64,000 nucleotides of DNA from Antedon mediterranea (Eukaryota > Animalia > Echinodermata). Location: contig NC_092676.1 of assembly GCF_964355755.1 (NCBI RefSeq), forward strand, positions 4,255,888 through 4,319,887, written 5' to 3'. The position numbers were made by a program, and so were the translations under genes. Below the pieces are notes generated by a model. The model had not been told where the DNA came from. It ran no database searches and saw nothing but the letters and a program-made list of their open reading frames with translations. Shown piece by piece: positions 6,036-60,696 of this stretch; within the stretch, counting starts at the first letter, position 1; every line of letters starts with the position of its first letter.

Positions 6036-6087
<52 letters not shown>

Positions 6088-7040: not shown

Positions 7041-7420
7041 ATTCCCATTATATTCATTTTCTCATTTAGAATGTTCAATTCTTGCAAACATTCTTAAACA
7101 ATATGTTACCTTCAATTGCATTTATCCTTTGTTCTAAAAAACCTTTCTATACACTTTCTTAGAAAATAATCAATAGTACAAATAGTAAATTCACATTCAT
7201 TACTGTTTATCTTCAATCTATATATGCAATTACTTAACAAAAACAATTAAATATTAATATCAACCACTAAGCAAAGTAATACACCTGGTGAACTGATTTA
7301 TCTTAATTATTTAAACTCTTTTGCAACAATACTAAAAGAAACAATATTATGTCAAACGTTGAGATGACTTTGGGAGATAAAGTTTACTACGCACATCACG
7401 GTACTGAATTGCGTAAGAAG

Positions 7421-7496
7421 ATGTTTGTCTTTAAAGTGGTAATCATATTGATGGAGTTATCGTTTTCTAGTTGTGCTGATGTTGATTCAAATTCCG
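7421..7496 (+). CDS. Putative first coding exon, signal peptide [25 protein letters not shown]
   Basis: ATG in AAGATGT context, hydrophobic core ending S-C-A, phase-1 donor TCCG|GTATGA matching the phase-1 SRCR acceptors. An in-frame upstream ATG at 7349 is an alternative start. Confidence 0.6.
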
Positions 7497-10400: not shown

Positions 10401-13400
10401 TTGACTGGTTTTGATTGCCGGACATCACTTCCATTCTGTATGCGTATTATCACATACGATTGTTAGGTCACACTTTATAAGATTTGATTGATTTTAATCG
10501 CCGGACATTGCTTCCATTTTGTATGCGTATTATCACATACGATTGTTAGGTCACACTTTATAAGATTTGACTGGTTCTGATCGCCGGACATCACTTCCAT
10601 TTTGTATGCGTATTATCACATACGATTGTTACGTCACACTTAATAAGATTGACATCGCTTCCATTTTCGTTGCTTATTATTACTAACCATTGCTACGTCA
10701 CACTTTATAATATTTGGCTGGTTTTGTCGCCGGACATCGCTTCCATTTTGTATGCGTATTAGCACATACGATTGTCTTTATAAGATTTGGCTGGTTCTGA
10801 TCGCCGGACATCACTTCCATTTCCGTTGCATAGTATCACATACGATTGTTACGTCACACTTTATAAGATTCGGCAGGTTTTGATCGGCGGACATCGCTTC
10901 CATTTTCGTTGCATAGTATCACATACGATTGTTACGGCACACTTTATAAGATTCGGGAGGTTTTGATCGGCGGACATCGCTTCCATTTTCGTTGCATAGT
11001 ATCACATACGATTGTTACGTCACACTTTATAAGATTTGACTGGTTTTGATTGCCGGACATCACTTCCACTTTGTATGCGTATTATCACATACGATTGTTA
11101 GGTCACACTTTATAAGATTTGACTGGTTCTGATCGCCGGACATCACTTCCATTTTGTATGCGTATTATCACATACGATTGTTACGTCAAACTTTATAAAA
11201 TTCGGCAGGTTTTGATCGGCGGACATCGCTTCCATTTTCGTTGCATAGTATCACATACGATTGTTACGTCACACTTTATAAGATTTGACTGGTTTTGATT
11301 GCCGGACATCGCTTCCATTTTCGTTGCATGTATCACATACGATTGTTACGTAGCACTTTATCAGATTTGACTGGTTTTAATCGCCGGACATCACTTCCAT
11401 TTTGTATGCGTATTATCACATACGATTGTTATGTCGCACTTTATAAGATTTGACTGGTTTTAATCGCCGGACATCACTTCCATTTTGTATGCGTATTATC
11501 ACATACGATTGTTATGTCGCACTTTATAAGATTTGACTGGTTTTAATCGCCGGACATCACTTCCATTTTGTATGCGTATTATCACATACGATTGTTACGT
11601 CACACTTTATATAAGATTTGACTGGTTTTAATCGCCGGACATCACTTTCATTTTGTATGCGTATTATCACATACGATTGGTAGGTCACACTTTATAAAAT
11701 TTGACTGGTTTTGATCGCCGGACATTGCTTCCATTCTGTTGCATATGATCACATACGATGGTTACGTCACACTTTATAAGATTTGACTGGCTTTGATCGC
11801 CGGACATCCCTTACATTCTGTATGCATATGATCACATACGATTGTTACGTAACACTAAGATTCGGCAGGTTTTGATCTCTGCACATCACTTTCATTTTCG
11901 TTGCATAGTATCATATTACTATTTTATCTAATTGTCGCATTTGATAATTTAAAGATTATAAGCAGTAATTACTATAATTAAGTAATAATAATTTAATTTA
12001 AGGCTTCAGTAAACATTTTCCGCAAACTATATATTTACTTATTTGTAGGGCAGAATATTATTACCCCTCACTTTAAGAATACCGTGCAAAAGTACTACTA
12101 CTACTGCACCACTACCACCCCTACCACCACTACTACTAACATTCAGTAGGATTAATAGCAGTATACATTTAAATAAAGAAATGTTTTAAACTATATTGTA
12201 ATTGTTGTTATGCAGACATTAGACTTGTGGATGGCAGCAATATTTATGAGGGGCGAGTTGAAGTTTACGATGGTACAGAATGGGGTACAATATGTGATGA
12301 TGACTGGGACAATACACACACACAATACAAACTTCGAATTCAAATTCATTTATTGCAACTGAGTAAACATTGTTGAACTTACAAAAGTACTGGTAAAACA
12401 TTAATAAATATGAAAAATACAAATTCACATACATGAAAAATACATCAACATATTTACAAAGGCAAAAGTAAATTATATAGTTATCTAATAGTTATTTTTA
12501 TTTATTTATTTTGGTTCAAGTTCCGGTACATTTATTTATCATAATTTAATATATATTATACAGTAATAAAGTACAGGAGGAGTGTTATTTATCTAATTGT
12601 CATTATTGGATAATTTAAAGATGATAACAGTAATTAATATAATTAATTAATATTACATTTATAAAGAAACTTGTACATTTGTTTAATTTTAATAGTAAAC
12701 ATTAGACTTGTGGATGGCAGCAATATTTATGATGGGCGAGTTGAAGTTTACGATGGTACAGAATGGGGTACAATATGTGATGATGACTGGGACATTAACG
12801 ACGCTCAGGTTGTATGTCAACAATTAAGACTAGGACAAGCTATCCAAGCTCCAGGGCAAGCTCATTTTGGTCAAGGGACTGGTCCGATTATGCTTGATAA
12901 TGTTCGGTGTTCAGGAAATGAGACATCTATCACAGACTGTCCTAATAATGGAATGAGGGCACACAATTGTGGACATTCTGAGGATGCTAGTGTTGTTTGT
13001 GGTAGGTAAAGTAGAAACTGTATAAAAAGGATCACTAAATACAGACAACAACAATACTCTAAGGCCAAGACACTTTTTTAACTAGGAAATGTCAATATGT
13101 TTATCTCAGTTTAAAAAGAAAATGTGTTTTTTTTCATATTTTTGTTCATTGCCACCATTCAGACTTTGTGTCCTTTGTATCCTTACTTTGTGAGTGGCCG
13201 AGCGGTTAAGACAGTCGAACCGTAATTACGTAGCCATAACATCGGCAGGGGTTCGAGGCTCACTCACTCCATGGTTCTGGTGGTAGAACGAGTCTTCTCG
13301 GATAAGGACTATAAACCGTAGGTCCAGTGTACACAACTAGCTCGTGTGCACTTTAAAGAACCTAGTACATCTTTCGAGACGAGTAGGGGGTTACCCCGGT

Positions 13401-16400
13401 GTACTAGTACGTCACAGCCACGGATCACCAGCTGGACACTCTGGGAGACCAGTCTTTGACTGAAGAGGTCACCCAGTATAAATATATATTTCAATCAATC
13501 AATCCACGTCCCAGTTATATTACTCATTAAATGTTAAAATAAAAACGTTAAGCAATTTCAAGTTGTTACTCATCTTATAAAATAATGGGCAGTTTGTCAG
13601 AGTTGGAAAACAGAACCAGTTGTTATTTTTATTTGGTTTCAATCTCAAAATCATAATTTGAAATTTATTATCCATTTACACATTTTCATTCATCATTTAA
13701 TTTTATATCTGTTCATTTTATATCTGTTCATTTTATATCTGTTCATTTTATATCTGTTCATTTTATATCTGTTCATTTTATATCTGTTCATTTTATATCT
13801 GTTCATTTTATATCTGTTCATTTTATATCTGTTCATTTTATATCTGTTCATTTTATATCTGTTCATTTTATATCTGTTCATTTTATATCTGTTCATTTTA
13901 TATCTGTTCATTTTATATCTGTTCATTTTATATCTGTTCATTTTATATCTGTTCATTTTATATCTGTTCATTTTATATCTGTTCATTTTATATCTGTTCA
14001 TTTTAGTTCATTCAATTTTTACAAAACAGTAGACATAAATGTTAAAAGGTACCAGAAAATAATAAATAATAATGAAGATAATGTTATTTAGTGATGAAAG
14101 CTTAAAATGTTTCTATGGGCAGATATTATCTCATATTAAGATATACCTCATCATTTAATTATTCTTTATATTGAACAGATTTTAAATTTAGGAATAAAGT
14201 GTTTAATAGCAGTAATTAATAATACTATATTAGGTACCCTTACAATGGACGGGCGCCATCTTATGATTATTTTAAGGTTCGGGAATCAAAAAGATATTAC
14301 AGTAATATAATGTAATGTCCTGAGATACTTGTGTCAGATTTACATCAGCTATTCAAATAGACTTAACGAGAGTATAGCTTCACAGTGAGAGATATATCAA
14401 TATAAGAACTGATTTTAACTTGTACCTTTTGTTTCATTTAGTAAACATTAGACTTGTGAATGGCAGCAATATCAATGAGGGACGAGTTGAAGTTTACGAT
14501 GGTACAGAATGGGGTACAATATGTGATGATGGCTGGGAAATCAACGACGCTCAAGTTGTATGTCGACAATTAAGACTAGGACCAGCTACACAAGCTCCAA
14601 GGCAAGCTCATTTTGGTCAAGGGACTGGTCCGATTATGCTTGATGATGTTCAGTGTTCAGGAAGTGAGACATCTATCACAGACTGTCCTAATAATGGAAT
14701 GAGGGTACACAATTGTGAACATTCTGAGGATGCTAGTGTTATTTGTGGTAGGTAAAGTAGTAACTGTAAAAAGGATTAACACAGAAAACAACAATACTGT
14801 AAGGCCAAGACAACTTTTTTAACTAGGAAATGTTTATCCCAGTTGAAAAGGAAAATCAATTTTGTTTTGTTCATAAGCTAATCTTTTTAATATTTTTGTT
14901 TATTTCCACCATTTAAATTTTTATTCACGTCCCAGTTATATTCATTAAATGTTAAAATAAAAACGTCAAGAAATTTCAAGTTGCTACTCATTTTATAAAA
15001 TAATGGGCAGTTTGTCGGAGTTGGAAAACAGAACCAGTTGTAATTTTTATTTGGTTGCAATCTCAAAATCATATTTTGTTTAAGAAATGTATTGTCCATT
15101 TACACATATTCATTCATCATTTAATTTTATATCTGTTTATTTCAGTTCATTCAATTTTTACAAAACAGTAGACATAAATGTAAAAAGGTACCAGAAAATA
15201 ATAAATAAACTAATAATGAAGATAATGTTATTTAGTGATGAAAGCTTAAATGTTAAAAATATTTCTAAGGGCAGATATTATCTCATATTAAGATATACCT
15301 CATCGTTTAATTATTCTTTATATTGAACAGGTTTTAAATTTAGGAATAAATTGTTTAATAGCAGTAATTAATAATACTATATTAGGTACCCTTACAATGG
15401 ACGGGCGCCATCTTATGATTATTTTAAGGTTCGGGAATCAAAAAGATATTACAGTAATATAATGTAATGTCCTGAGTTACTTGTGTCAGATTTACATCAG
15501 CTATTCAAATAGACTTAACGAGAGTATAGCTTCACAGTGAGAGATATATCAATATAAAGAATTGATTTTAACTTGTACATTTTGTTTCATTTAGTAAACA
15601 TTAGACTTGTGAATGGCAGCAATATAAATGAGGGACGAGTGGAAGTTTACGATGGCACAGAATGGGGTACAATATGTGATAATGGCTGGGACATCAACGA
15701 CGTTCAAGTTGTATGTCGACAATTAAGACTAGGACCAGCTATCCAAGCTCCAAGACAAGCTTATTTTGGTCAAGGGACTGGTCCGATTATGCTTGATGAT
15801 GTTCAATGTTCAGGAACTGAGACATCCATCACAGACTGTCCTAATAATGGAATGAGGGTACACAATTGTGGACATTATGAGGTTGCTAGTGTTATTTGTG
15901 CAGGTAAAAACACACACACTAAATACAAACTTCGAATTCAAATTAATTTATTGTAACAAAGTAACCATTGTTGAACTTACAAAAAGTACAGGTATATAAA
16001 TATGAAAAATATAAATTCATGTACATCACCACCAAAATACATCAACATATTTACAAAGGCAGAAGTACATTATATAGTAATCTAATAGTTATTATTTTTT
16101 ATAAATTTATTTTGGTTCAAGTTCCAGTATTTATCTATCATAATTTAATAGATATTATAATAAAGTACAGAGTAGTGTTATTTACCGTGATAATCTAAAT
16201 ATAATAACAGTAATTATTATAATTAATTAATATTACATTTATAAAGAAACTTGTACATTTGTTTAATTTTAATAGTAAACATTAGACTTGTGGATGGCAG
16301 CAATTTCTATGAGGGGCGAGTTGAAGTTTACGATGGTACAGAATGGGGTACAATATGTGATAATGGCTGGGACATCAACGATGCTCAAGTTGTATGTCGA

Positions 16401-19400
16401 CAAATAAGACTAGAACAAGCTATCCAAGCTCCAGGGCAAGCTCATTTTGGTCAAGGGATTGGTCCGATTATGGTTGATAATGTTCAGTGTTCAGGAAGTG
16501 AGACATCTATCACAGACTGTCCTAATAATGGAATGAGGGCACACAATTGTGGACATTCTGAGGATGCTAGTGTTGTTTGTGGTAGGTAAAATAGTAACTG
16601 TATAAAAAGGATTAATAAATGCAGACAACAACAATACTGTAAGGCCAACACACTTTTTAAACTAGGAAATGTTAATATGTTTATCTCAGTTTAAAAGGAA
16701 AATGTCTTTTTTCATATTTTTGTTCATTGCCACCATTCAGACTTTGTGTCCTTTGTATCCTTACTTTGTGAGTGGCCGAGCGGTTAAGACAGTCGAACCG
16801 TAATTACGTAGCCATAACATCGGCAGGGGTTCGAGGCACACTCACTCCATGGTTGTGGTGGTAGAACGAGTCTTCTCGGATAAGGACTATAAACCGTAGG
16901 TCCAGTGTACACAACTAGCTCGTGTGCACTTTAAAGAACCTAGTACATCTTTCGAGACGAGTAGGGGTTACCCCGGTGTATTAGTACATCACAGCCACTG
17001 ATCACCAGCTGGACACTCTGGGAGACCAGTCTTTGACTGAAGAGGTCACCCAGTATAAATATATATTTCAATCAATCAATCCACGTCCCAGTTATATTAC
17101 TCATTAAATGTTAAAATAAAAACGTTAAGCAATTTCAAGTTGTTACTCATCTTATAAAATAATGGGCAGTTTGTCAGAGTTGGAAAACAGAACCAGTTGT
17201 TATTTTTATTTGGTTTCAATCTCAAAATCATAATTTGAAATTTATTATCCATTTACACATTTTCATTCATCATTTAATTTTATATCTGTTCATTTTATAT
17301 CTGTTCATTTTATATCTGTTCATTTTATATCTGTTCATTTTATATCTGTTCATTTTATATCTGTTCATTTTATATCTGTTCATTTTATATCTGTTCATTT
17401 TATATCTGTTCATTTTATATCTGTTCATTTTATATCTGTTCATTTTATATCTGTTCATTTTATATCTGTTCATTTTATATCTGTTCATTTTATATCTGTT
17501 CATTTTATATCTGTTCATTTTAGTTCATTCAATTTTTACAAAACAGTAGACATAAATGTTAAAAGGTACCAGAAAATAATAAATAATAATGAAGATAATG
17601 TTATTTAGTGATGAAAGCTTAAAATGTTTCTATGGGCAGATATTATCTCATATTAAGATATACCTCATCATTTAATTATTCTTTATATTGAACAGATTTT
17701 AAATTTAGGAATAAAGTGTTTAATAGCAGTAATTAATAATACTATATTAGGTACCCTTACAATGGACGGGCGCCATCTTATGATTATTTTAAGGTTCGGG
17801 AATCAAAAAGATATTACAGTAATATAATGTAATGTCCTGAGATACTTGTGTCAGATTTACATCAGCTATTCAAATAGACTTAACGAGAGTATAGCTTCAC
17901 AGTGAGAGATATATCAATATAAGAACTGATTTTAACTTGTACCTTTTGTTTCATTTAGTAAACATTAGACTTGTGAATGGCAGCAATATCAATGAGGGAC
18001 GAGTTGAAGTTTACGATGGTACAGAATGGGGTACAATATGTGATGATGGCTGGGAAATCAACGACGCTCAAGTTGTATGTCGACAATTAAGACTAGGACC
18101 AGCTACACAAGCTCCAAGGCAAGCTCATTTTGGTCAAGGGACTGGTCCGATTATGCTTGATGATGTTCAGTGTTCAGGAAGTGAGACATCTATCACAGAC
18201 TGTCCTAATAATGGAATGAGGGTACACAATTGTGAACATTCTGAGGATGCTAGTGTTATTTGTGGTAGGTAAAGTAGTAACTGTAAAAAGGATTAACACA
18301 GAAAACAACAATACTGTAAGGCCAAGACAACTTTTTTAACTAGGAAATGTTTATCCCAGTTGAAAAGGAAAATCAATTTTGTTTTGTTCATAAGCTAATC
18401 TTTTTAATATTTTTGTTTATTTCCACCATTTAAATTTTTATTCACGTCCCAGTTATATTCATTAAATGTTAAAATAAAAACGTCAAGAAATTTCAAGTTG
18501 CTACTCATTTTATAAAATAATGGGCAGTTTGTCGGAGTTGGAAAACAGAACCAGTTGTAATTTTTATTTGGTTGCAATCTCAAAATCATATTTTGTTTAA
18601 GAAATGTATTGTCCATTTACACATATTCATTCATCATTTAATTTTATATCTGTTTATTTCAGTTCATTCAATTTTTACAAAACAGTAGACATAAATGTAA
18701 AAAGGTACCAGAAAATAATAAATAAACTAATAATGAAGATAATGTTATTTAGTGATGAAAGCTTAAATGTTAAAAATATTTCTAAGGGCAGATATTATCT
18801 CATATTAAGATATACCTCATCGTTTAATTATTCTTTATATTGAACAGGTTTTAAATTTAGGAATAAATTGTTTAATAGCAGTAATTAATAATACTATATT
18901 AGGTACCCTTACAATGGACGGGCGCCATCTTATGATTATTTTAAGGTTCGGGAATCAAAAAGATATTACAGTAATATAATGTAATGTCCTGAGTTACTTG
19001 TGTCAGATTTACATCAGCTATTCAAATAGACTTAACGAGAGTATAGCTTCACAGTGAGAGATATATCAATATAAAGAATTGATTTTAACTTGTACATTTT
19101 GTTTCATTTAGTAAACATTAGACTTGTGAATGGCAGCAATATAAATGAGGGACGAGTGGAAGTTTACGATGGCACAGAATGGGGTACAATATGTGATAAT
19201 GGCTGGGACATCAACGACGTTCAAGTTGTATGTCGACAATTAAGACTAGGACCAGCTATCCAAGCTCCAAGACAAGCTTATTTTGGTCAAGGGACTGGTC
19301 CGATTATGCTTGATGATGTTCAATGTTCAGGAACTGAGACATCCATCACAGACTGTCCTAATAATGGAATGAGGGTACACAATTGTGGACATTATGAGGT

Positions 19401-49400: not shown

Positions 49401-52400
49401 CCGTGACAGATTGCACCCCCTGTATTATAATAGTTAATAACTATATACTATAGGGGGTACAATATATTATGGGCTGTCTAGAATATTAGGTACCCCTTTA
49501 CAGATTGCACCCCCTATATTATAACAGTTAATAACTATATATTATAGGGGGTGCAATATATTATGGGCTGTCTAGAATATTAGGTACCCCCGTGAGAGAT
49601 TGCACCCCCTATATTATAACAGTTAATAACTATATATTATAGGGGGTGCAATATATTATGGGCTGTCTAGAATATTAGGTACCCCGTGACAGATTGCACC
49701 CCCTATATTATAACAGTTAATAACTATATATTATAGGGGGTGCAATATATTACGGACTGTCTAGAATATTAGGTACCCCCGTGAGAGATTGCACCACCTG
49801 TATTATAATAGTTAATAACTATATACTATAGGAGGTACAATATATTATGGGCTGTCTAGAATATTAGGTACCCCGTGACAGATTGCACCCCCTATATTAT
49901 AACAGTTAATAACTATATATTATAGGGAGTGCAATATATTATGGGCTGTCTAGAATATTAGGTACCCCCGTGAGAGATTGCACCCCCTATATTATAACAG
50001 TTAATAACTATATACTATAGGGGGTACAATATATTATGGGCTGTCTAGAATATTAGGTACCCCCGTGACAGATTGCACCCCCTATATTATAACAGTTAAT
50101 AACTATATAATATAGGGGGTGCAATATATTATGGGCTGTCTAGAATATTAGGTACCCCGTGACAGATTGCACCCCCTATAATATAACAGTTAATAACTAT
50201 ATACTATAGGGGGTGCAATATATTATGGGCTGTCTAGAATATTAGGTACCCCGTGACAGATTGCACCCCCTGTAATATAACAGTTAATAACTATATATTA
50301 TAGGGGGTGCAATATATTACGGACTGTCTAGAATATTAGGTACCCCCGTGACAGATTGCACCCCCTATATTATAACAGTTAATAACTATATATTATAGGG
50401 GGTGCAATATATTATGGGCTGTCTAGAATATTAGGTACCCCCGTGACAGATTGCACCCCCCTATATTATAACAGTTAATAAATATATATTATAGGGGGTG
50501 CAATATATTATGGGCTGTCTAGAATATTAGGTACCCCGTGACAGATTGCACCCCCTATATTATAACAGTTAATAACTATATACTATAGGGGATGCAATAT
50601 ATTACGGACTGTCTAGAATATTAGGTACCCCGTGACAGATTGCACCCCCTGTATTATAATAGTTAATAACTATATATTATAAGGGGTACAATATATTATG
50701 GGCTGTCTAGAATATTAGGTACCCCGTGACAGATTGCAACCCCTATATTATAACAGTTAATAACTATATATTATAGGGGGTGCAATATATTACGGACTGT
50801 CTAGAATATTAGGTACCCCGTGACAGATTGCACCCCCTATAATATAACAGTTAATAACTATATACTATAGGGGGTGCAATATATTATGGGCTGTCTAGAA
50901 TATTAGGTACCCCGTAACAGATTGCACCCCCTGTAATATAACAGTTAATAACTATATATTATAGGGGGTGCAATATATTACGGACTGTCTAGAATATTAG
51001 GTACCCCCGTGACAGATTGCACCCCCTATATTATAACAGTTAATAACTATATATTATAGGGGGTGCAATATATTATGGGCTGTCTAGAATATTAGGTACC
51101 CCCGTGACAGATTGCACCCCCTATATTATAACAGTTAATAACTATATACTATAGGGGGTGCAATATATTACGGACTGTCTAGAATATTAGGTACCCCGTG
51201 ACAGATTGCACCCCCTATAATATAACAGTTAATAACTATATACTATAGGGGGTGCAATATATTATGGGCTTTCTAGAATATTAGGTACCCCGTGACAGAT
51301 TGCACCCCCTGTAATATAACAGTTAATAACTATATATTATAGGGGGTGCAATATATTACGGACTGTCTAGAATATTAGGTACCCCGTGACAGATTGCACC
51401 CCCTATATTATAACAGTTAATAATAACTATATATTTTAGGCGATACAATACAATACAATTTTGTTGTTTATTAATTTCATACATGCATTTCAAATTCACA
51501 AATGTCCCGCCCGCGACGTTTTAGGTGGTTTTTTATATTTATTTAAAAAGTAATGATGCAAAAATCATATTTCAAAAATATATTGTTACGGACGGGACAT
51601 TTTTTTTACGGACGGGACATATGATTTAAATCCTAATTATTTCACAAACCATGAATGTTTTAAACATTTTTTGACAGATATAGTTACACTATGACCCTAT
51701 ATTGTACATAGTCAAGCATTTTATAACACATATTTTGTTTATTAAATTTTATATATACATTTCAAAATTCATAATTGTCCCATCCACGACATTTAATAGT
51801 AGTTTTATGGTGTTTTTTACATTTCAGTTAACGTATTGATACCACAATTTAATATTTAGTTTTTTCCTTTTAAAAACTATATGCAGTACATTATAAACAA
51901 ATATTTTGAAACTTTTGGTGAACATATCGTATTTCAAAAATATATTGATGACATTTTTTGTAGGAACGGGACAGACATTTTTGTTAAGGACAGGACATAT
52001 CATTTAAATCCTTTTCATTTAATAAAACCATGCATCTTGTTAACATTTTCCCCATAAATATACTGTAGTTAACTTTTTATTTCACAGTAAGCTCCAATTG
52101 TTCATAATCAAGTACAGTATTTTATTATTGTTTATTAATTTCATACTTGCATTTCAAAATTCATAATTGTTACTTCTGAGACATTTCGATTGAGGTTTTT
52201 TCCTCACTTGTGTTTATTGAAGTAATGGCTCCAAAATTGTTATTTAATTCTTAATTTTCAATTGCAATAGATTTAAACAAGTTTTTTTAATATAAAAAAC
52301 ATTACTATCAAAATTTAGTGAATGTTACGGATGGGAAATTTTTGTTAGGGATGGGATGGCATTATTTTAAGAATTAAAACGTGTTTTTGTACTGTAGGCT

Positions 52401-55400
52401 GGACAGTACTGTACAAAGGTGTTAACTGCTGTTTATTAATCACAAAACATTGTGGTCTGTATTTAAAAAAACAATCCACAAAAGAACAATACCGAAATCC
52501 AAAACAACATGAAAAGTATGAAAGGGAGTATTGGGTGTGGTCATCACTTTGTAGATTTTGTGAATTTGCAACCAAGAATCTTTAAATATCAGATACTAAA
52601 TAATTAAGATTGAAGTTTAATAGAAGTAGGCCTACAGTAACATTAAATCCAAGCAAGGATGCAACTTGGATCCACTTTCTAACAAATTCAGACGTCAAAT
52701 GCCAACGACAATTTTTAAAGATTCTCCTTAAATGTGTTAATAGCTTGAAGTCTTGTGTAATATGCCAAGCACAACTTTTAAATTAGTGTAAATATTATTT
52801 TGATAGCATTTAACAGTATTGCTTCTCTTTATAACTCTTCGAATAATTAATTTTATAAATAAATATTTCATATTTATGAATTTTAATATTTTCACTTGAC
52901 ATAAACTTTTATACAGTGTTTCAAAGGTTGAATTATATTTTGATTTGTAAATAAAGGAGTAAATTGATGTAAAAAACCTCAGAAAAAACTAATTATAAAT
53001 TTTGTTTAACCTGGACAAAAGTGTCCTGTCCGCGATGTTAGAAATGTCCCGTCCGTAACGACATATAAATCATTTTATTAATAAATTTGCAGTTAAAATT
53101 TTATAATTAACAGTCAGTCATCTAAAACAACTATCTGGCAACATAATAATACAAAACAAATTTTAAAATCTCTTTTAAATGAGGAGAAATATTACAATAC
53201 GTAAACCTTCTTAAAACTCATTTCCAATTTGCCGTCATCCACGACGCATACAATTTTCATAATAAAAATATTTTTGTACAGTTTTTTTTTTCTTTTTTTT
53301 TGACTTCATAATTAACATTGGCCACATATGTATACATTCATTCTACTTTGAATCTTGTATTGTTTTTAATTTAAAGATAATGTCACAACAACTAGTTATA
53401 TTCTCAATTCCCTAATATATAGTTATTAACTGTTATATTATAGGGGGTGCAATCTGTCACGGGTTACCTAATATTCTAGACAGGCCGTAATATATTGCAC
53501 CCCCTATAGTATATAGTTATTAACTGTTATATTACAGGGGGTGCAATCTGTCACGGGGTACCTAATATTCTAGACAGCCCATAATATATTGCACCCCCTA
53601 TAATATATAGTTATTATTAACTGTTATAATATAGGGGGTGCAATCTGTCACGGGGTACCTAATATTCTAGACAGCCCATAATATATTTCACCCCTATAAT
53701 ATATAGTTATTAACTGTTATAATATAGGGGGTGCAATCTGTCACGGGTTACCTAATATTCTAGACAGCCCGTAATATATTGCACCCCCTATAGTATATAG
53801 TTATTAACTGTTATATTACAGGGGGTGCAATCTGTCACGGGGTACCTAATATTCTAGACAGCCCATAATATATTGCACCCCCTATAATATATAGTTATTA
53901 TTAACTGTTATAATATAGGGGGTGCAATCTGTCACGGGGTACCTAATATTCTAGACAGCCCATAATATATTGCACCCCTATAATATATAGTTATTAACTG
54001 TTATAATATAGGGGGTGCAATCTGTCACGGGTTACCTAATATTCTAGACAGCCCGTAATATATTGCACCCCTATAGTATATAGTTATTAACTGTTATATT
54101 ACAGGGGGTGCAATCTGTCACGGGGTACCTAATATTCTAGACAGTCCGTAATATATTGCACCCCCTATAGTATATAGTTATTAACTGTTATAATATAGGG
54201 GGTGCAATCTGTCACGGGTTACCTAATATTCTAGACAGCCCGTAATATATTTCACCCCTATAGTATATAGTTATTAACTGTTATATTACAGGGGGTGCAA
54301 TCTGTCACGGGGTACCTAATATTCTAGACAGCCCATAATATATTGCACCCCCTATAATATATAGTTATTATTAACTGTTATAATATAGGGGGTGCAATCT
54401 GTCACGGGGGTACCTAATATTCTAGACAGCCCATAATAGGCCTATATTGCACCTCTATAATATATAGTTATTAACTGTTATAATATAGGGGGTGCAATCT
54501 GTCACGGGTTACCTAATATTCTAGACAGCCCGTAATATATTGCACCCTTATAGTATATAGTTATTAACTGTTATATTACAAGGGGTGCAATCTGTCACGG
54601 GGTACCTAATATTCTAGACAGCCCATAATATATTGCACCCCCTATAATAAATAGTTATTATTAACTGTTATAATATAGGGGGTGCAATCTGTCACGGGGG
54701 TACCTAATATTCTAGACAGCCCATAATAGGCCTATATTGCACCTCTATAATATATAGTTATTAACTGTTATAATATAGGGGGTGCAATCTGTCACGGGGG
54801 TACCTAATATTCTAGACAGTCCGTAATATATTGCACCCCCTATAATATATAGTTATTAACTGTTATAATATAGGGGGTGCAATCTGTCACGGGGGTACCT
54901 AATATTCTAGACATTCCGTAATATATTGCACCCCCTATAATATATAGTTATTAACTGTTATAATATAGGGGGTGCAATCTGTCATGGGGGTACCTAATAT
55001 TCTAGACAGTCCGTAATATATTGCACCCCCTATAATATATAGTTATTAACTGTTATAATATAGGGGGTGCAATCTGTCACGGGGGTACCTAATATTCTAG
55101 ACAGTCCGTAATATATTGCACCCCCTATAATATATAGTTATTAACTGTTATAATATAGGGGGTGCAATCTGTCACGGGGGTACCTAATATTCTAGACATT
55201 CCGTAATATATTGCACCCCCTATAATATATAGTTATTAACTGTTATAATATAGGGGGTGCAATCTGTCACGGGGGTACCTAATATTCTAGACAGCCCATA
55301 ATATATTGCACCCCTTTAATAGATAGTTATTAACTATTATATTAGGCCTATAGGGGGTGCGTCACGGGTGTACCTAATATTCTAGACAGTCCGTAAAATA

Positions 55401-58400
55401 TTGTATCCTACTATAGTAGGCCTATTAACTGTTATATTAGGGGTATAGGGGTGCAACCTGTCACGGGGTACATAATATTGTAGACACCGAGGTTATAGGC
55501 CTACCTAAGCCTACTAGAGTGATTACCGTACTGTTATATTGTACCCTGTCACGAGGGTACAGACATTTGTCACAATATTGGGAATATTAACTCGTCAATT
55601 GCCGTGTATTAGATTATGTCATTCACATGGTTACAGATTAGTTTTTACGGTGCGTTTTTTATATTGTCTATCGTAGGCCTAAAGAATTAGCCACAATTCA
55701 TGATTTATAGTAGGCCTATAATAATGTATTACAGGATGTGAGAAAACTGTTCAATTTTATATTCTTAAGTTGGTCTATTTCGTAGGGAGGCGTGGATCAT
55801 TATTTTAAAAGAGTTACTATAAATGTATCTCCACAATCGGTCGCTATTGGCCAGGCTAGCCAGCCTAGTTCACATCACAGCTATATAAGCAGCTACAGCA
55901 GGCTCGGCTGTTTCGATTCAGAGATATCGGACTTCCGCGTCAGAGGCCTAGGTTATTTTCTCGATAAACAATCATTGCATGGTACATTTATGGATAATGT
56001 AGGTACATGAACAGTAGTATTTTTGTTATTATTACTGTACTAAAGACCTATAGGCTACATAAGTTGTGCGGGAGCGGTAGACATCTAAATATAAAATGTT
56101 ACTTAACATTACGTACGAGCGAGAGGGGATACTAAAAATTATGGGCGGATACAGTATGCTAATTATGTTGTGACGTTATTTGTAATTCAATAGGGGGTGC
56201 ACTCTGTTACGGGGGTACCTAAAATTTTAGAACAACGGCAGCCACCGCGTGGATGTGAAAAAACTGTTCGGGAAGTCAGGGTCACAACGCTAAAAACAGC
56301 ATTACGATTCTTAGATAGATAGGCCTACTGATACTTATTAATATCATTATAATTATTTTAACGCGTGGCGTAGTCATATTTTAATTATTAATTCATGTAT
56401 GGCATAGGCCAAGTTTCATCCATCGCTCTCTCGCTCGCGCAACGACTATCTAGGCTACAGTAAATCCCTATAACACTCCGACTCTCCGTGGTGTGGCACT
56501 ATTAATTATTAGTGCAAGCTATAATTCACTTCCCAGAGCTCTGGACATGCGCAATAGCGTGTCGGATTCCCTAATGATGGGCAGTTGAGTTCCGGTGCCG
56601 GAATCCTAACCACGGCGAATATAATATGTTTTTATTTCACCTGTATCGAATTATAAGAATTTATTTTCATCTTTAAAATACTCATTGTTATCACACCACC
56701 AGTATTCATCATTATCGTAGTGTTCTACTATGTAATTGTAATATAGAAATACATGAATTACTGAATTGTATTATTTACTGCTTGTGTTTTTTTTATACAA
56801 AACCATTATAGTCGGATGCCCAACATATTGCACATGTAATGTCTGGACGTGTGAAGATGATTGTTATAATCTCACTACATGTACTGGATGGAATACAAAT
56901 ATACATACAGAGCTTGTTGACTACAATGTGTATGATCCAATAACAACATTGTAAGTAGAACATTTTTTATCGATATTTTGAAATCTAACTAAATTTATGT
57001 CATACTGTGAGCAAAATCTACAATTTATATTTCTTTGATAATAGGTTCATGCTATTTATACAGCAGGATCATGATAATATTTAACAGAGGGGGAGTGGGT
57101 GGATTTTGTTAATGTGGAACTACTGGTCTTGTGCCGGTCTACAGTATATTTAGGTCGTTTCAGTCAGTTTACGGGCTCATCAGTATTCTGGTCAATTTCC
57201 GTATACGACATTTTACGTAAGAATGTGATAGTAGACTAAAAATTAAAATTATTTATCCACCATGATTGAACTATTTATTTTTGTAAGATCTAAGAATTGA
57301 AACTGAATCTGTATTACATATTAGATAATACATTTATTATAATATGGTTGCTATCAAACAATTACATTTGGTGAAGACATTTTATTTTAAGAAAATAAGT
57401 TATTAAATTATATTTATATTTATAATAATATACCACATTTTAATAAAAAATGACAAAATGTTAATAAGTAGGCCTAATCATGGATTAATAATATGTACCT
57501 TTTGATTCCATGATTATTTACAGTAAACCCAATTTTAAAATCAACATTTTTAAAATTTATCAACCATGATTGAACTATTTATTTTTGTAAGATCTAAGCA
57601 TTGAAACTGAATCTGAATTACATATAGATAATACATTTATTATATGGTTGCTATCAAACAATTTTAATTAGTTGTAGACATTTTATTTTTTAATAAAATA
57701 TACATTTTTATTTTAACATAGTATATTTTGTAAATCACTAAAGTACATACAATAGAGTACATGCAGTATAACTACTGTATAATGTACAGGAATATAGACA
57801 TTTCAACATTTGAGGTGACAGAAAAACTAAAATAATTTAAAAACAGCTTGGATATTGTGATTTACTTATACTGTGGATTCATTTTACTTTTAAGGATTTT
57901 CCCCACTGAACAAATAAGTACATTGCAAGCCAATGCATTTGCTGGTTTGACAGCATTGGAAACACTGTAAGTGTATTGCTTATGTTTGCTTACTTTTACC
58001 AATTTGGTTTTAGATTAGAAATTAAACTAAAAATTATTTTACATTGTTGGTTAAACAATGATAATTGATTAATATTATTGTATAATTTTACAATTTGTGA
58101 TCTTATAAAAATATCTTTATAAATCACTAGTTTTTAGTTTATCCACCATGAATGAACTTTATTTTTTCTGTAATATATATAATATAGGCTTAATATATAT
58201 TAATTCAATATATTCACAATATAAATATCATTATAATGAATGTTACTAAATAATAATATTTGTTTATTTATTAATTTTGTCTTATAAGAATAAAAATTAT
58301 TAAAATTTATATATATATTGTATATTTGTATACATTAAAATGTTGATACAATACAATGCATTGTATTTGTAGGATCAATTATAATAATGGACTAATATGT

Positions 58401-60696
58401 AACTTATGATTTCATGATTATTTACAGTAAAACAAATTTAAAAAGCAACAATTTTTTAATTTATGCACCATGATTGAACTATTTACTTTTGTAAGATATA
58501 ACAATAGAAATTAAATCTGTATACATATTAGATACTACATTTGTTATATGGTTGCTAACAAACAATTTGAAATTCGTGTAGAAATTTTCTTTTAGGAAAA
58601 TAAGTTATTAAAATATATTTATCACATTTTTATTTTAACTTAGTATATTTTGACATATAAGACATGCAGTATAACTACTGTATAATGTACAGGAATGTAG
58701 AAATTTCAACATTTAATTTAGAAACAGCTTGTGATTTACTTGTACTGTGCATTCTTTTTACTTTTAAGGAATTTGAACAATAACCAAATAAGTACATTAC
58801 CAGCCAATGCATTTGCTGGTTTGACAGCATTGGAAACACTGTAAGTGGTGTATTGCTTATGTTTGCTTACTTTTACCAATTTGGTTTTAATTTAGAAAAT
58901 AAACTAAAAATTATTTTACATTGTTGGTTAAACAATGATAATTGATTAATATTATTGTATAATTTTACAATTTGTGATCTTATAAAAATATTTTTATAAA
59001 TCACTAGTTTTTAGTTCATCCACCATGAATGTTTATGTAGTGAGTTTGTTTTATGAGAATAAAAATTATTAAAATATAAATATATTTTATATTTTGACAT
59101 TAAGATGTTGATACAATACAGTGCATGTATTGTAGGATCAATTGTAATAATGGACTAATATGTACCTTATGATTTCATGATTATACAGTCAAACAAATTT
59201 TAAAATCAACATTTTTAAAATTTATCCACCATGATTGAACTATTTATTTTTTAGATTACCGGGTGTCACGAAACCTAAGACCACGAAAGCTAAGACCTCC
59301 TAAGACCTAAGATCACGAAAGCTAAGACCCAAGACCTAAGATTACAAATATTTATCTTTCGCACCTGCCTTGTATTTTAACTCCCAACATTTATTCTGAA
59401 TACCACACCTTAGAATTGGCACTTTCATGAAAAATAATCACATAAAAAGTAACAAATACATTTTTAAATTGATGATTTTACAGACGTTTTTCTCGCACAC
59501 AAAATGACTAGCCTACACTAGTAGGCCTACCCCATGTTCAATGTTTTTGTTTATATGGAATGTCAAAAGAGCAAAAATTATATAGAGGGCTGAAAACTCT
59601 GTGGAGTCCATCTACAGTGTGGATGGAACAATGTAAAATTAAAATTGTAATGATAATAGTATAATCATGCAAGTACGAAGAAATAAATATTGGCAAATAA
59701 ATTTTAACTTAAAAATCATGATAAGTTTTTTTGTTTCGTTTTCTTTCTGTTTTATACTTGTACTATTATTGTTGCTCTTTTGGCGCTCCATAGAAACAAA
59801 AACATTGAGCATGTGGAGCTCGAGGAGTTACATTACAGTATACAAAGAAACACGTCTGTAAAATCATCAATTTAAAGGATTTATTTATTTGTTATTATGT
59901 GTTTCTCCTTCTGAAAGTACTTATAAGTCCTAATTTTAAAGTGTGGTATTCAGGATAAAGTTAGTCAACAAATTTGAAGTCAAAATACAAGAAAGGCAGG
60001 TGCGTAAGAAAAACATCCTCTGAACCAACACATTGGAGTAAATATATACCAACAAACAACCCGTCAAGTTTGTTTGTTGTAAAGAAAAAATATACATTTA
60101 CTCAACGGGTGAAAATAATGTGAGTTTATCTATGTTTTGCGGTAGTATTAAATTATATTTATGGTAATAAATGAAACCTACTGTGTTTAAAATTATGTAT
60201 GGATAAACAAGTATTGTTTTTAAGCTGTAGTATACCTTAGAATTTGTAATCTTAAGTCTTGGGTCTTAGCTTTCGTGATCTTAGGTCTTAGGGGCTCTTA
60301 GCTTTCGTGGTCTTAGGTTTCGTGACACCCTTAGATTACCAATTGAAACTGAATCTGTATACATATAGATAATACATTTATTATATGGTTGCTAACAAAC
60401 AATTTTAATTTGATGTAGACATTTTATTTTTATAAAATAAGTTATTAAAATATACATTTTTATTTTAACATAGTATATTTTGACATAACTAAAGTACATA
60501 ACTACTGTATAATGTACAGGAATGTAGACATTTCAACATTTGAGGTGACAGAAAAACTAAAATAATTTAAAAACAGCTTGGATATTGTGATTTACTTATA
60601 CTGTGGATTCATTTTACTTTTAAGGTATTTGGACAGGAACCAAATAAGTACATTACCAGCCAATGCATTTGCTGGTTTGACAGAATTGGAAAGACT
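7421..60696 (+). CDS. Spliced gene model (3' incomplete): signal peptide - 17 x SRCR - LRRNT - at least 3 x LRR; putative scavenger/pattern-recognition receptor
   Basis: The exons listed below have AG/GT boundaries with compatible phases (1, 1-1 x17, 1-2, 2-2) and join into one open frame. Whether all are in one transcript is inferred. Confidence 0.7.
7846..7920. mobile_element. Harbinger-type MITE end fragment
   Basis: TAA followed by GGCCGGTTCACACT; partner end not found. Confidence 0.35.
9447..11915. repeat. 83-bp satellite, ~30 copies, in the first intron
   Basis: Unit CGTATTATCACATACGATTGTTACGTCACACTTTATAAGATTTGACTGGTTTTAATCGCCGGACATCACTTCCATTTTGTATG; unit starts at 9447 and 9530. Confidence 0.95.
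12216..12310 (+). pseudogene. 3'-truncated SRCR pseudo-exon
   Basis: TGCAG|ACATTAGACTT acceptor, encodes [31 protein letters not shown], then jumps into the intron sequence that follows exon 13 (27832 onward). Confidence 0.85.
12696..13001 (+). CDS. SRCR exon 1 (group A, 6 Cys)
   Basis: TTTTAATAG acceptor; [34 protein letters not shown]; donor G|GTAGGT; 306 bp. Confidence 0.92.
13190..13504 (+). mobile_element. tRNA-derived SINE with Deu/Nin-like core; duplicated copies at 16768-17081, 20285-20598, 23802-24115, 26401-26715
   Basis: A box TGGCCGAGCGG, B box GGTTCGAGGC, core GGATAAGGACTATAAACCG..GTGCAC..TAAAGAACC, 3' stem-loop and (CAAT)n tail. Paralogous introns (e.g. ~28700, ~46325) show the empty site. 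Confidence 0.85.
13700..14005. repeat. 15-bp minisatellite (TTTTATATCTGTTCA)n; also at 17278-17522, 20795-21040, 28903-29080
   Basis: Direct reading; present as a single unit in the other paralogous introns. Confidence 0.95.
14442..14747 (+). CDS. SRCR exon 2
   Basis: Same motifs; CATTTAG acceptor; G|GTAGGT donor; 306 bp. Confidence 0.92.
15595..15903 (+). CDS. SRCR exon 3
   Basis: Same motifs; CAG|GTAAAA donor; 309 bp. Confidence 0.92.
16276..16581 (+). CDS. SRCR exon 4
   Basis: Same motifs; 306 bp; phase 1-1. Confidence 0.92.
17959..18264 (+). CDS. SRCR exon 5 (same protein as exon 2)
   Basis: Exon 2 shifted by 3517 bp. Confidence 0.92.
19112..19420 (+). CDS. SRCR exon 6 (same protein as exon 3)
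   Basis: Exon 3 shifted by 3517 bp. Confidence 0.92.
19793..20098 (+). CDS. SRCR exon 7 (same protein as exon 4)
   Basis: Exon 4 shifted by 3517 bp. Confidence 0.92.
21476..21781 (+). CDS. SRCR exon 8 (same protein as exon 2)
   Basis: Exon 5 shifted by 3517 bp. Confidence 0.92.
22629..22937 (+). CDS. SRCR exon 9 (exon 3 type with CDN to CDD change)
   Basis: Exon 6 shifted by 3517 bp, with two substitutions. Confidence 0.92.
23310..23615 (+). CDS. SRCR exon 10 (same protein as exon 4)
   Basis: Exon 7 shifted by 3517 bp. Confidence 0.92.
24772..25080 (+). CDS. SRCR exon 11
   Basis: Same motifs; CAG|GTAAAA donor; 309 bp. Confidence 0.92.
25470..25510 (+). pseudogene. Remnant of an SRCR exon 5' end
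   Basis: TTTTAATAG|TAAACTATATTAGATTTGTGAATGGCAGCAATATCTATGAG fused directly to downstream intron sequence. Confidence 0.75.
25915..26223 (+). CDS. SRCR exon 12
   Basis: Same motifs; GAG|GTAAAG donor; 309 bp. Confidence 0.92.
27516..27824 (+). CDS. SRCR exon 13
   Basis: Same motifs; AAG|GTAGGG donor; 309 bp. Confidence 0.92.
28218..28523 (+). CDS. SRCR exon 14
   Basis: Same motifs; G|GTAGGT donor; 306 bp. Confidence 0.92.
29540..29848 (+). CDS. SRCR exon 15
   Basis: Same motifs; CAG|GTAAAA donor; 309 bp. Confidence 0.92.
30101..32185 (-). repeat. 3' LTR (2085 bp) with internal ~35-bp minisatellite (30303-31887)
   Basis: Matches 44149-45715; polypurine tract AGGAGGGGGGTGA adjacent on the - strand (32186-32198). 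Confidence 0.95.
35802..40054 (-). mobile_element. Decayed Academ-type DNA transposon nested in Gypsy pol
   Basis: TIRs start TAGTCCAGTCAATCTA and are ~120 bp imperfect; 3-bp TSD AAG; removal restores LDLCRLQMK. Broken - strand motifs [61 protein letters not shown] and WGWK resemble Academ transposase/XPG-like domain (recognised from memory). Confidence 0.8.
36975..37830 (+). mobile_element. 5'-truncated CR1-group LINE (Rex1/Babar or L2-like) inside the Academ element
   Basis: [17 protein letters not shown] and KFADDT RT motifs, then frameshifted [24 protein letters not shown]. Confidence 0.85.
41815..43418. mobile_element. MITE/foldback element with (GGACAACTACCCCC)n inverted arms, nested in the Harbinger
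   Basis: 8-bp TSD CAAAAAAT (41807-41814, 43419-43426); arms ~41815-42075 and ~43160-43418. Confidence 0.75.
42139..42520. mobile_element. Mutator-like MITE nested in the previous MITE
   Basis: TIR GGGTGTTTCGAAACTA(G/T)AGACCCGAGACCAGAGACC; 9-bp TSD GTTTTTAAC; internal GGGTCTCCCTTTTCGTATA repeats. Confidence 0.88.
44130..44147 (-). promoter_or_regulatory. Primer-binding site complementary to tRNA-Leu 3' end
   Basis: TGGTGGCAGCGGTGGGAT one base after the 5' LTR; matches the ..ATCCCACCGCTGCCA-CCA end of eukaryotic tRNA-Leu. Confidence 0.85.
44149..45715 (-). repeat. 5' LTR (1567 bp) with a shorter minisatellite (44346-45417)
   Basis: Same unique ends as 30101-32185. Confidence 0.95.
45840..46148 (+). 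CDS. SRCR exon 16
   Basis: Same motifs with a one-codon insertion (HNYCG); G|GTAGGT donor. Confidence 0.9.
46998..47312 (+). CDS. SRCR exon 17
   Basis: Same motifs with an in-frame 6-bp insertion (RVGLHDC); CAAT|GTAAGA donor; 315 bp. Confidence 0.9.
48144..48191 (+). ncRNA. Degenerate minimal type I hammerhead ribozyme (Penelope pLTR-like)
   Basis: CACTTGCA-CTGATGA-AGGGGTAGTGTTTTCC-AAAA-GCTC-TGCTAAGTG; stem I pairs, but the conserved GAAA reads AAAA. Confidence 0.55.
48657..51440 (+). repeat. 94-bp satellite arm, ~29 copies
   Basis: Unit CGGACTGTCTAGAATATTAGGTACCCCGTGACAGATTGCACCCCCTATATTATAACAGTTAATAACTATATACTATAGGGGGTGCAATATATTA. Confidence 0.95.
53412..55489 (-). repeat. Same 94-bp satellite in inverted orientation, ~22 copies
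   Basis: Reverse complement of the 48657-51440 unit. Confidence 0.95.
56812..56950 (+). CDS. LRR N-terminal cap (LRRNT) exon: [46 protein letters not shown]
   Basis: CPxxCxC motif; ATAG acceptor in phase 1; TT|GTAAGT donor in phase 2. Confidence 0.8.
57895..57966 (+). CDS. LRR exon 1 (72 bp): [24 protein letters not shown]
   Basis: TTTTAAG acceptor, CT|GTAAGT donor; 24-aa typical-class LRR; phase 2-2. Confidence 0.85.
58769..58840 (+). CDS. LRR exon 2 (72 bp): [24 protein letters not shown]
   Basis: Matches LxLxxNxIxxLPxxxFxxLxxLxxL; canonical splice sites. Confidence 0.9.
59261..60330. mobile_element. Mutator-like MITE between LRR exons 2 and 3
   Basis: TIR GGGTGTCACGAAACCTAAGACCACGAAAGCTAAGA; 10-bp TSD TTAGATTACC; long imperfect inner inverted repeats. 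Confidence 0.9.
60625..60696 (+). CDS. LRR exon 3 (72 bp): [24 protein letters not shown], weakened donor
   Basis: Paralogue of LRR exons 1 and 2; donor is GTGTAT because GTAA is missing relative to GTAAGTGTAT. Confidence 0.75.

Follow-up and report, generated by a model that had tools for sequence, protein, structure and literature searches.

Exon chain and intron content

The window, that is, the whole 64,000-nucleotide stretch of Antedon mediterranea DNA analysed, contains a forward-strand chain of SRCR, cap and LRR exons interspersed with transposable elements.

7421-7496, + strand: signal-peptide-like first coding exon (phase 0-1; 9-residue hydropathy up to 3.0; also used by RefSeq model P0057)
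~12213-12311 (ends approximate), + strand: truncated 18th SRCR pseudo-exon, a 5' third fused to intron sequence (SRCR profile positions 1-32, E 1.8e-7)
12696..29848, + strand: SRCR exons S1-S15 (306 or 309 bp, phase 1-1; S1 starts at 12696)
30102..45715, - strand: Gypsy-type LTR retrotransposon in intron 15 (TG...CA ends, 5-bp target duplication, interrupted gag/pol ORFs)
45840..46148, + strand: SRCR exon S16 (phase 1-1)
46998..47312, + strand: SRCR exon S17 (phase 1-1; donor AAT/GTAAGA)
47533..56617, no strand assigned: foldback transposon filling the S17-cap intron (TIRs 92% alike, inverted 94-bp satellite arrays, 9-bp target duplication AATATAATA)
56812-56950, + strand: Cys-rich cap exon, likely LRRNT (6 Cys, CPxxCxC, phase 1-2)
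57895-57966, + strand: LRR exon 1, an atypical first repeat (72 bp, phase 2-2)
58769-58840, + strand: LRR exon 2 (72 bp, phase 2-2)
59261..60330, no strand assigned: inverted-repeat element in the LRR2-LRR3 intron (10-bp target duplication)
60625-60696, + strand: LRR exon 3 (72 bp, phase 2-2, degenerate donor)
61145..63490 (ends approximate), - strand: LINE after LRR3 (reverse transcriptase on the - strand, endonuclease-side fragment on the + strand, (CAGT)n tail)

Every exon of the chain has AG/GT ends and the phases given above, and joining the signal exon, 17 SRCR exons, cap and three LRR exons by coordinates yields 5666 nt, or 1888 amino acids, without a stop. The single reading frame described in the initial annotation is thereby confirmed. 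Its 17 SRCR exons are all present, only 12 of them distinct in sequence, and its LRRNT exon is borne out by pattern and position but not by a profile match.

All transposons found are intronic and together amount to about 28 kb. Joined, the flanks of the Gypsy-type element form a 372-bp sequence 84% identical to a 393-bp paralogous intron. The S17-cap intron spans 9499 bp, of which 9085 bp belong to the foldback element, which we take to be Mutator-like; contig depth climbs steeply at the left end of this element, and loose ends fall there. The remaining ~405 bp resemble the 372-393-bp short introns of the SRCR array. This short transposon-free remainder, together with the matching phases, favours a single gene, and it is likely that the SRCR exons and the cap belong together. 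A distinctly improbable alternative is a pair of genes: one, with its end at S17, would encode a secreted SRCR agglutinin of DMBT1-like type, and the other, an LRR-GPCR independent of it, would begin upstream of the cap. Consistent with two genes, the RefSeq models of the SRCR array are named 'DMBT1-like' and not joined to LRRs, read-through of S17 produces a 34-residue tail and then a stop, a weak signal-exon-like candidate (56007-56112, donor 5/9) lies in the right arm of the foldback transposon, and three LRR-7TM ORFs of another assembly (L002, L004 and L015) have their signal peptide immediately ahead of the cap. However, the ~405 bp of non-transposon DNA contain no candidate signal exon, the phases match, the S17 donor is good, and the RefSeq models, which divide the array by stopping after S5 and S12, are visibly faulty in that they include the pseudo-exon and intron read-through.

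Searching sequencing runs with the cap/LRR region yielded seven from three studies, none of them RNA, a result with no bearing on expression. Contigs of four runs over 46160-48600 showed no S17-to-cap joint or loose end among those listed, with 460 loose ends and 3747 pieces unlisted. One loose end at 47307 (X1) reads into another SRCR start, unlike that of this gene; X4 and X6 give inconsistent contig depths, which are not taken as copy numbers.

SRCR array, splice donors and constraint

The two SRCR exons scanned, S1 and S17, match Pfam SRCR (E 9e-33 and 2e-31), all 17 encode six Cys, and the acidic cation-site residues of DMBT1 recur at equal spacing (D/E in 17/17, D in 17/17 and E in 16/17, placed by spacing from the first Cys; DMBT1 reference, PMC7043408), a combination that assigns the domains to the SRCR superfamily. 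The D1020-equivalent is D in seven exons, N in nine and K in one. Judged by eye, 4 of 13 variable columns fall at the cation site, a suggestive observation only. An LRR motif occurs in none of the 114 SRCR-bearing proteins fetched, and no LRR Pfam family appears among the 120 matches listed (of 498) in the SRCR protein search, two of which are near-identical Antedon models.

Both this array and that of the LRR exons have grown in tandem. Identical SRCR exons (S2=S5=S8, S4=S7=S10 and S3=S6) account for the reduced number of distinct sequences, and S2-S10 form three tandem units of 3517 bp, the first two identical over the 3064 nt compared and the third differing at five sites, with 15-bp microsatellites of 20.4, 16.4 and 16.4 copies; this triplication may yet be an assembly artefact. 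These tandem duplications demonstrate that exons have been gained in the genome. Skipping is a separate matter: Dscam-like receptors owe their isoform diversity to cassette or mutually exclusive exons, whereas the SRCR and LRR phases here permit skipping without demonstrating it, and free skipping is a putative, unproven mechanism of diversity. The cap exon cannot be skipped in frame. Moreover, nine of the 17 SRCR exons have twin donors offset by 4 nt, of which the upstream one (GTG/GTAGGT) alone keeps the frame and the other gives ...CGSKH or ...CGSKY followed by a stop, so that many splice variants would lose the frame and yield a truncated product. The twin-donor form is also found in contigs from two other runs (X2 and X6) and is thus not a private lesion.

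The LRR3 donor is degenerate (ACT/GTGTAT), having lost 4 nt relative to LRR1 and matching 3/9 consensus positions, versus 6-7 for the other 21 exons; its read-through leads to a short hydrophobic tail and a stop. This weak donor and the heavy transposon load indicate that the present copy may be damaged, and we regard full function as an even prospect. It is unlikely that the copy, though of the same architecture, is a decaying or truncated paralogue with a transcript ending at or after LRR3 or mostly SRCR-only, intact receptors lying elsewhere in the cluster. Besides the lesion at LRR3, the LINE right after it and the intronic transposons, decay would fit the dead SRCR exon, the twin donors and the near-neutral pN/pS of 0.86 among SRCR exons. 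Against decay, none of the at least 87 substitutions among the 12 distinct exons creates a stop or removes a Cys (P about 5e-4 if neutral), both indels preserve the frame, the transposons spare the exons, LRR3 skipping would keep the frame and twin donors recur in X2 and X6.

LRR exons and the Antedon 7TM paralogues

LRR2 and LRR3 match Pfam LRR_8 below the curated cut-off (E 6e-5 and 1e-3), and LRR1 and the cap have no Pfam match. The cap likewise found no match in PDB or Atlas, no candidate among proteins of 80-2000 aa in a word-index search and, against the 50% library, five matches, all to unrelated repeat proteins (two of the five clusters with bacterial- or archaeal-named members); its single-sequence structure model (pLDDT 42) was not used. 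Its arrangement equals that of the L002 cap, albeit at no significant similarity. An LDLa-like reading of the cap (WxCExxC) was dropped, having neither motif nor profile support. The assignment to a Cys-capped LRR ectodomain is drawn from the LRR_8 matches and from identity to P0145, an Antedon protein, with the cap recognized by pattern only: P0145 is the best match of each LRR exon among 165 fetched proteins (18/23, 19/23 and 17/23 residues for LRR1, LRR2 and LRR3, versus 13, 16 and 14 of 23 for the best non-Antedon matches). Concave-face positions vary at 2.0 bits, compared with 0.9 elsewhere (13 distinct repeats, not independent of one another; 1 of 4368 permutations), a variability general to LRR proteins, and all six nucleotide differences between LRR2 and LRR3 are non-synonymous.

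An LRR profile search returned 16 matches among 1146 candidates, the top bit scores belonging to bacterial or metagenomic multi-LRR proteins (13/16) and two matches being Antedon GRL101-like LRR+7tm_1 proteins. The clusters of these two comprise eight Antedon proteins (nine accessions, the two of P0145 perhaps being one gene), all with 7tm_1 and 90-100% identical over 339 aa of hinge and 7TM. Six of the nine accessions map to the 30,557,870-bp contig that also carries the split SRCR models. If accession order is assumed to reflect position, the window's ...195 and ...197 lie between ...189/192 on one side and ...203 and ...207 on the other. None of the eight models contains LRR1-3 exactly, or the cap. 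Residues 2-20 of P0142 match the translated LRR intron repeat of the window at four places (up to 12/19; at most 9 in 200 shuffles), so the P0142 gene model begins within that intron unit and its genuine N-terminus is missing; the corresponding match of P0145 (five residues) is weak and equalled by 12/200 shuffles. By sequence, the LRR exons and their introns are closest to these GRL101-like LRR+7TM models, several of them on the same contig.

The eight paralogous models possess a rhodopsin-type 7TM closest to relaxin receptors, the best solved relative of their hinge and 7TM being RXFP1 (E 1e-47 versus 2e-30 for LH/FSH receptors), and carry DRA and NPYLY motifs. Their hinge, a region absent from the window, spans 34 aa from SEYSSL to TM1 in 8/8. 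The LDLa core motif occurs neither in the six frames of the window nor in the eight N-truncated models, and Pfam LDLa matches neither the window exons scanned nor the paralogous models. A metagenome scan with P0144 recovered 20 loci from one assembly, 7TM relatives of 28-42% identity with mostly long uninterrupted LRR frames; none of the 20, most of them on short contigs, had an SRCR match.

Taken together, these observations suggest that the exon chain is probably the 5' part of one type C LGR gene of the RXFP1/GRL101 class. The gene is incomplete in the window, because the chain ends there without a C-terminal cap, membrane segment or stop; the 64 kb contain no 7TM exon, and the 7TM part, the remaining LRRs and the hinge probably lie beyond. 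If the SRCR exons and cap do form one gene, its linkage to a 7TM is very probable. A single SRCR-LRR gene with a different ending (single-pass, TIR, GPI or secreted), sharing its LRR exons with the GPCR family through exon shuffling, would suit an array of mobile symmetric exons and a gene end beyond the window, yet 7tm_1 is present in every Antedon protein retrieved with these LRRs (5/5 LRR-bearing models), and we consider this reading very improbable. In the type C LGR reading, the SRCR array is best seen as occupying the place usually held by LDLa modules; having no LDLa, the receptor would function in the manner of GRL101 yet falls outside GRL101 proper.

A putative SRCR-armed receptor and its known relatives

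The initial annotation proposed a chimeric SRCR and LRR receptor, of which the union in one gene is favoured here, but it missed the receptor class: the LRR cassette is that of an expanded GRL101-like family of type C LGRs, a known kind. The further claim of an undescribed immune system was overstated, and the locus does not represent a new immune system: LGR clusters with lectin-type modules are tied to parasite resistance in snails (PMC12297450), and LRR_1 and 7tm_1 are listed among the partner domains of sea-urchin SRCR (PMC2575513, supplement 3).

Immune sensing is an evenly balanced proposition for this receptor. The linker-less SRCR rod could bind repetitive anionic surfaces, such as microbial walls or large glycoproteins, with high avidity via its cation sites, with the variable LRR concave face adding specificity; binding would shift the ectodomain and free the hinge/ECL2 self-activation known from RXFP1, leading to G-protein signalling. 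Diversity would be mainly genomic, generated by unequal crossing-over of symmetric exons, gene duplication and concave-face substitutions, and the twin donors might additionally yield truncated, secreted SRCR-only products or decay. Should the architecture be as proposed, a ligand other than microbes (a relaxin/insulin-like peptide, a pheromone or a large (lipo)protein) has only slightly less than even prospects. In vertebrates, type C LGRs act as receptors for peptides, the sensory tentacles of a starfish are enriched in a GRL101 (PMC6267866) and lipoprotein ligands have been proposed for LDLa-rich LGRs (PMC2396169); conversely, a recent multi-copy expansion with near-identical 7TMs and variable LRR faces suits changing ligands better than one hormone, and the LDLa core motif is missing from window and models. 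More speculatively, and with doubtful prospects, crinoids may possess a young multi-copy immune GPCR family in which an SRCR rod providing avidity and an LRR array with a VLR-like variable concave face sit directly on a relaxin-receptor 7TM, the 4-nt tandem donor toggling each gene between a receptor that signals and SRCR agglutinins or decoys that are secreted and vary in length.

If confirmed, the locus would indicate that type C LGRs acquired a new pattern-recognition array in an event separate from the CTL-LDLa case of snails. It would also connect binding by scavenger domains directly to G-protein signalling; to our knowledge, most SRCR proteins have no signalling domain of their own. Standard annotation would then be dividing such genes between 'DMBT1-like' models and headless 'GRL101-like' ones, so the family may have gone unnoticed in the genomes of other echinoderms, and the receptor would be a test case for relief of RXFP1-type autoinhibition without LDLa. 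Neither an SRCR-LRR-7TM receptor nor GRL101 together with SRCR was found in a literature search thin on subscription papers.

Among SRCR proteins, DMBT1/SALSA is characterised by 8-Cys group B domains with spacers and C-terminal CUB and ZP; the Antedon domains have six Cys and abut one another, and the window ORFs include no CUB or ZP exons. The array resembles those of DMBT1/SALSA, CD163 and sea-urchin multi-SRCR proteins (PMC7043408, PMC3308324) in its length, its near-identical single-exon domains and its cation-site spacing, and differs from them in its Cys number, in the lack of visible spacer, CUB or ZP exons and in that it likely runs on into LRRs and a GPCR. The amphioxus SRCR GPCRs (PMC2246102) also carry SRCR in the ectodomain, but are of the adhesion class (GPS, 7tm_2) rather than the LRR rhodopsin class. 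Toll-like receptors combine LRRCT, a single TM and TIR; the C-terminus of the Antedon gene lies outside the window, and the closest relatives of its LRRs are 7TM proteins. Human RXFP1 (PDB 7tmw; bioRxiv 2022.01.22.477343), the best solved relative of the paralogues' hinge and 7TM, has two essential hinge leucines whose apparent counterparts are the LL of CEDLL, and is set apart by its one LDLa, hormone ligand and single-copy gene. The GRL101 (type C2) LGRs of Lymnaea and starfish (PMC4079206, PMC6267866) share tandem N-terminal modules, LRRs, a short hinge and a rhodopsin-type 7TM (hinge and 7TM here known only from the paralogous models, which RefSeq calls GRL101-like), while the Antedon modules are 17 SRCR domains with no LDLa motif found and the LRRs reside on near-identical 72-bp tandem exons. 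The SudRes2 GRL101-like cluster of Biomphalaria sudanica (12 genes, CTL-LDLa-LRR-7TM; PMC12297450) is likewise a set of clustered, recently expanded and under-annotated type C LGRs with an N-terminal pattern-recognition module; in this mollusc the module is a C-type lectin with LDLa rather than an SRCR array, and the cluster shows presence/absence variation, is linked to parasite resistance and has genetic evidence of an immune role, a role that is putative in Antedon.

Exon chain and coding constraint

Six-frame translation and splice-site mapping confirmed, with qualifications, the arrangement proposed in the initial annotation, in which a signal exon, 17 phase 1-1 SRCR exons, a cap exon and LRR exons join in one frame. 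All 17 SRCR exons have AG/GT boundaries and phase 1-1, and the chain joined by coordinates encodes 1888 aa with no stops.

Exons of the chain and the elements in its long introns (window positions)
7421-7496, + strand: signal-peptide-like first exon
12696-47312, + strand: 17 full SRCR exons (S1-S17)
30102-45715: Gypsy-type element inside intron 15 (15991 bp)
47533-56617: foldback element, 9.1 kb, in the S17-cap intron (9499 bp)
56812-56950, + strand: Cys-rich cap exon, 139 bp, phase 1-2
57895, 58769 and 60625 (starts), + strand: three 72-bp LRR exons (LRR1-3), phase 2-2

Pfam confirmed the SRCR domain in both SRCR exons scanned (two of the 17) and yielded sub-threshold LRR_8 matches for LRR2 and LRR3. 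The exon annotated as LRRNT stands, as does its phase 1-2, but neither this cap nor LRR1 had a Pfam match. Among 12 distinct SRCR exons, no stop and no loss of a Cys was seen in 87 or more substitutions (P ~5e-4), so the coding constraint is real, although the pooled pN/pS was 0.86 (55 pairs of 11 exons, S9 being excluded as near-identical to S3). A 3517-bp unit is present three times across S2-S10, and therefore S2=S5=S8, S4=S7=S10 and S3=S6. An 83-bp satellite array occupies part of the first intron (9447-11913). Upstream, a 367-bp tandem array (3881-6042; 99% alike) holds six tRNA-Thr(TGT) calls, and a 364-bp pair (6307-7041) holds two tRNA-Asp(ATC) calls; these arrays, either a tRNA cluster or tRNA-derived repeats, stop ~460 bp short of the start codon.

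Transposon-filled introns and integrity of the copy

Both long introns are transposon insertions. The flanks of intron 15, when joined, form a 372-bp sequence with 84% identity to a paralogous 393-bp intron. The LTRs of the Gypsy-type element hold 35-bp satellite arrays and differ at four sites in the last 286 nt, and further insertions break its gag and pol ORFs. The foldback element has terminal inverted repeats 92% identical, inverted 94-bp satellites in two arrays and a 9-bp target duplication, and its left end coincides with a steep rise in contig depth. Minus this transposon, the S17-cap intron measures ~405 bp, 17 nt of which match the array's short introns (E 0.006); a scan that recovered the true first exon as a control found no signal-exon candidate in this residue. 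These observations favour, short of proof, a single gene joining the SRCR array to the cap and LRR exons; no transcript spanning S17 and the cap turned up. Outside the satellite arrays, the scan also picked up one weak signal-exon candidate, inside a transposon arm. Two separate genes, one for the SRCR and one for the LRR part, seem distinctly improbable. If there is one gene, the foldback element could form a large pre-mRNA hairpin bringing the S17 donor to the cap acceptor.

Nine of the 17 SRCR exons (S1, 2, 4, 5, 7, 8, 10, 14 and 16) end in twin donors, GTG/GTAG/GTAAA, both of which, by inspection, agree with the consensus at 6 of 9 positions. The upstream site keeps the frame, the downstream site leads to a stop five codons later, and reading through into the intron gives CGR*. 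The twin form also occurs in contigs of two other sequencing runs (X2 and X6), and a single-donor form, GGAG, in X2. An 18th SRCR exon (~12213-12311) is truncated, the LRR3 donor has lost the TAAG of the LRR1 donor, and a LINE insertion lies ~450 bp past it. These features would fit a damaged window copy; with the SRCR exons under constraint, we regard that reading as unlikely, though it and the two-gene reading are the main rivals. Read-through of the damaged LRR3 donor (60697-60736) gives a short hydrophobic tail, possibly a chance anchor-like end, and then a stop. In the LINE (61145-63490), which has a (CAGT)n tail, the RT (- strand) and an endonuclease-side fragment (+ strand) face opposite ways, an internal inversion resembling twin priming.

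GRL101-like paralogues and probable receptor class

Within the window the exon chain has no end. The matches listed by an SRCR search include two RefSeq proteins from the crinoid Antedon mediterranea that are the window locus itself (97-100% match). A three-LRR-exon profile search of 1146 candidates gave 16 matches, of which 13 are LRR proteins from bacteria or metagenomes, one is from amphioxus and two are Antedon 'GRL101-like' GPCRs. The clusters of the latter two hold eight Antedon proteins (nine accessions), six on the same 30,557,870-bp contig as the locus models, with 7tm_1 in all eight and LRRs in five.

RefSeq models of the locus and its paralogues
XP_071956195: signal exon to S5, including the pseudo-exon at ~12213-12311
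XP_071956197: S6-S12
XP_071956189/192, 203, 207, XP_071955986, XP_071956107, XP_071950792, XP_071961247, XP_071959788: GRL101-like Antedon models

The hinge+7TM regions of the eight are 90-100% identical; none of these models has the cap or, by inspection, a clear signal peptide. Among 165 fetched proteins, one LRR+7TM paralogue (P0145) was the best match of LRR1, LRR2 and LRR3 (18, 19 and 17 of 23), and none held an exact copy of them. The N-terminal residues of another, XP_071956203, match the translated intron repeat preceding the window LRR exons (12/19 residues at two sites and 10 at another two, against a maximum of 9 in 200 shuffles), and therefore the headless GPCR models and the window LRR array share one exon-intron unit. 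From accession order, XP_071956203 is a candidate 3' half of the window gene. The XP_071956195, XP_071956197 and XP_071956203 models variously include a pseudo-exon, read through introns or start in intron-derived sequence, and annotation of this cluster is unreliable.

For the paralogues' hinge+7TM, the nearest solved structure is human RXFP1 (E 1e-47), with LH, FSH and TSH receptors at E 2e-30 to 2e-27; LRR-7tm_1 clusters head the Atlas feature matches, and the one ranked third is named relaxin family peptide receptor 1. The hinge has 34 aa, with CEDLL before TM1. The reading towards which we lean makes the window chain the 5' part of a type C LGR (the class including RXFP1, C1, and GRL101, C2) armed with SRCR domains, in a young crinoid gene cluster.

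Proposed ligand binding and known relatives

DMBT1 SRCR domains bind ligands via cation sites (D1019, D1020, D1058, D1059, N1081 and E1086; PMC7043408). Equally spaced residues in the window SRCRs are D/E in 17/17, D/N/K in 7/9/1, D in 17/17, N or less often D, and E in 16/17, so the array would likely bind anionic repetitive surfaces with mixed affinities. Across 13 distinct LRRs (two of the window's own and 11 of paralogous models, with LRR1 omitted as off-pattern), the five concave-face positions reach 2.0 bits versus 0.9 at other non-framework positions (1/4368 permutations), and LRR2 and LRR3 differ by six non-synonymous and no synonymous changes. Concave-face positions follow established LRR structure, and such variability is common in LRR proteins. 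In RXFP1, the ectodomain holds the receptor off, and self-activation proceeds by way of ECL2 and a pair of leucines in the hinge (bioRxiv 2022.01.22.477343). In the simplest model we infer, the SRCR rod would capture a target, the LRR face would supply specificity and the bound ectodomain would release autoinhibition. An immune role stands at about even odds with peptide, pheromone or lipoprotein sensing.

None of the papers surfaced by full-text searching describes an SRCR-LRR-7TM receptor; surveys of the sea-urchin immune repertoire (Hibino 2006), LGR classification (Van Hiel 2012) and hemichordate GPCRs (Krishnan 2013) may already mention one. The diverse SRCR architectures in the cited parts of PMC11797021, PMC7308585 and PMC3308324 do not include it. 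A 2008 table gives LRR_1 and 7tm_1 as partner domains of sea-urchin SRCR and LRR_1 for Nematostella, and is silent on whether LRR_1 and 7tm_1 share one protein (PMC2575513); SRCR with LRR therefore has precedent. The proposed chimeric receptor is partly supported: one gene is favoured, whereas calling it an undescribed immune system overstates the case. SRCR occurs in adhesion GPCRs of amphioxus (PMC2246102), and in Ciona, LDLa-GPCRs that lack LRRs have expanded (PMC2396169). Biomphalaria sudanica has 12 clustered GRL101-like genes (C-type lectin, LDLa, LRR), associated with schistosome resistance and mostly overlooked by automatic annotation (PMC12297450). In one other assembly, 20 loci hold LRR-7TM relatives with long uninterrupted frames and similar caps, with SRCR matches in 0/20; this family, four loci of which are listed below, is another expansion of LDLa-less LGRs.

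LRR-7TM receptors of the other assembly (signal peptide and Cys cap; no LDLa, no SRCR match)
L002:634-3480
L004:268-3141
L015:3644-6013
L016:376-6500

In type C LGRs, LDLa modules occur singly (C1) or as several copies (C2, GRL101) (PMC4079206, PMC6267866). A motif search found no LDLa core motif in the window or the eight GRL101-like models, which places the window gene outside GRL101 proper. It would work like GRL101, but with SRCR domains occupying the LDLa position.
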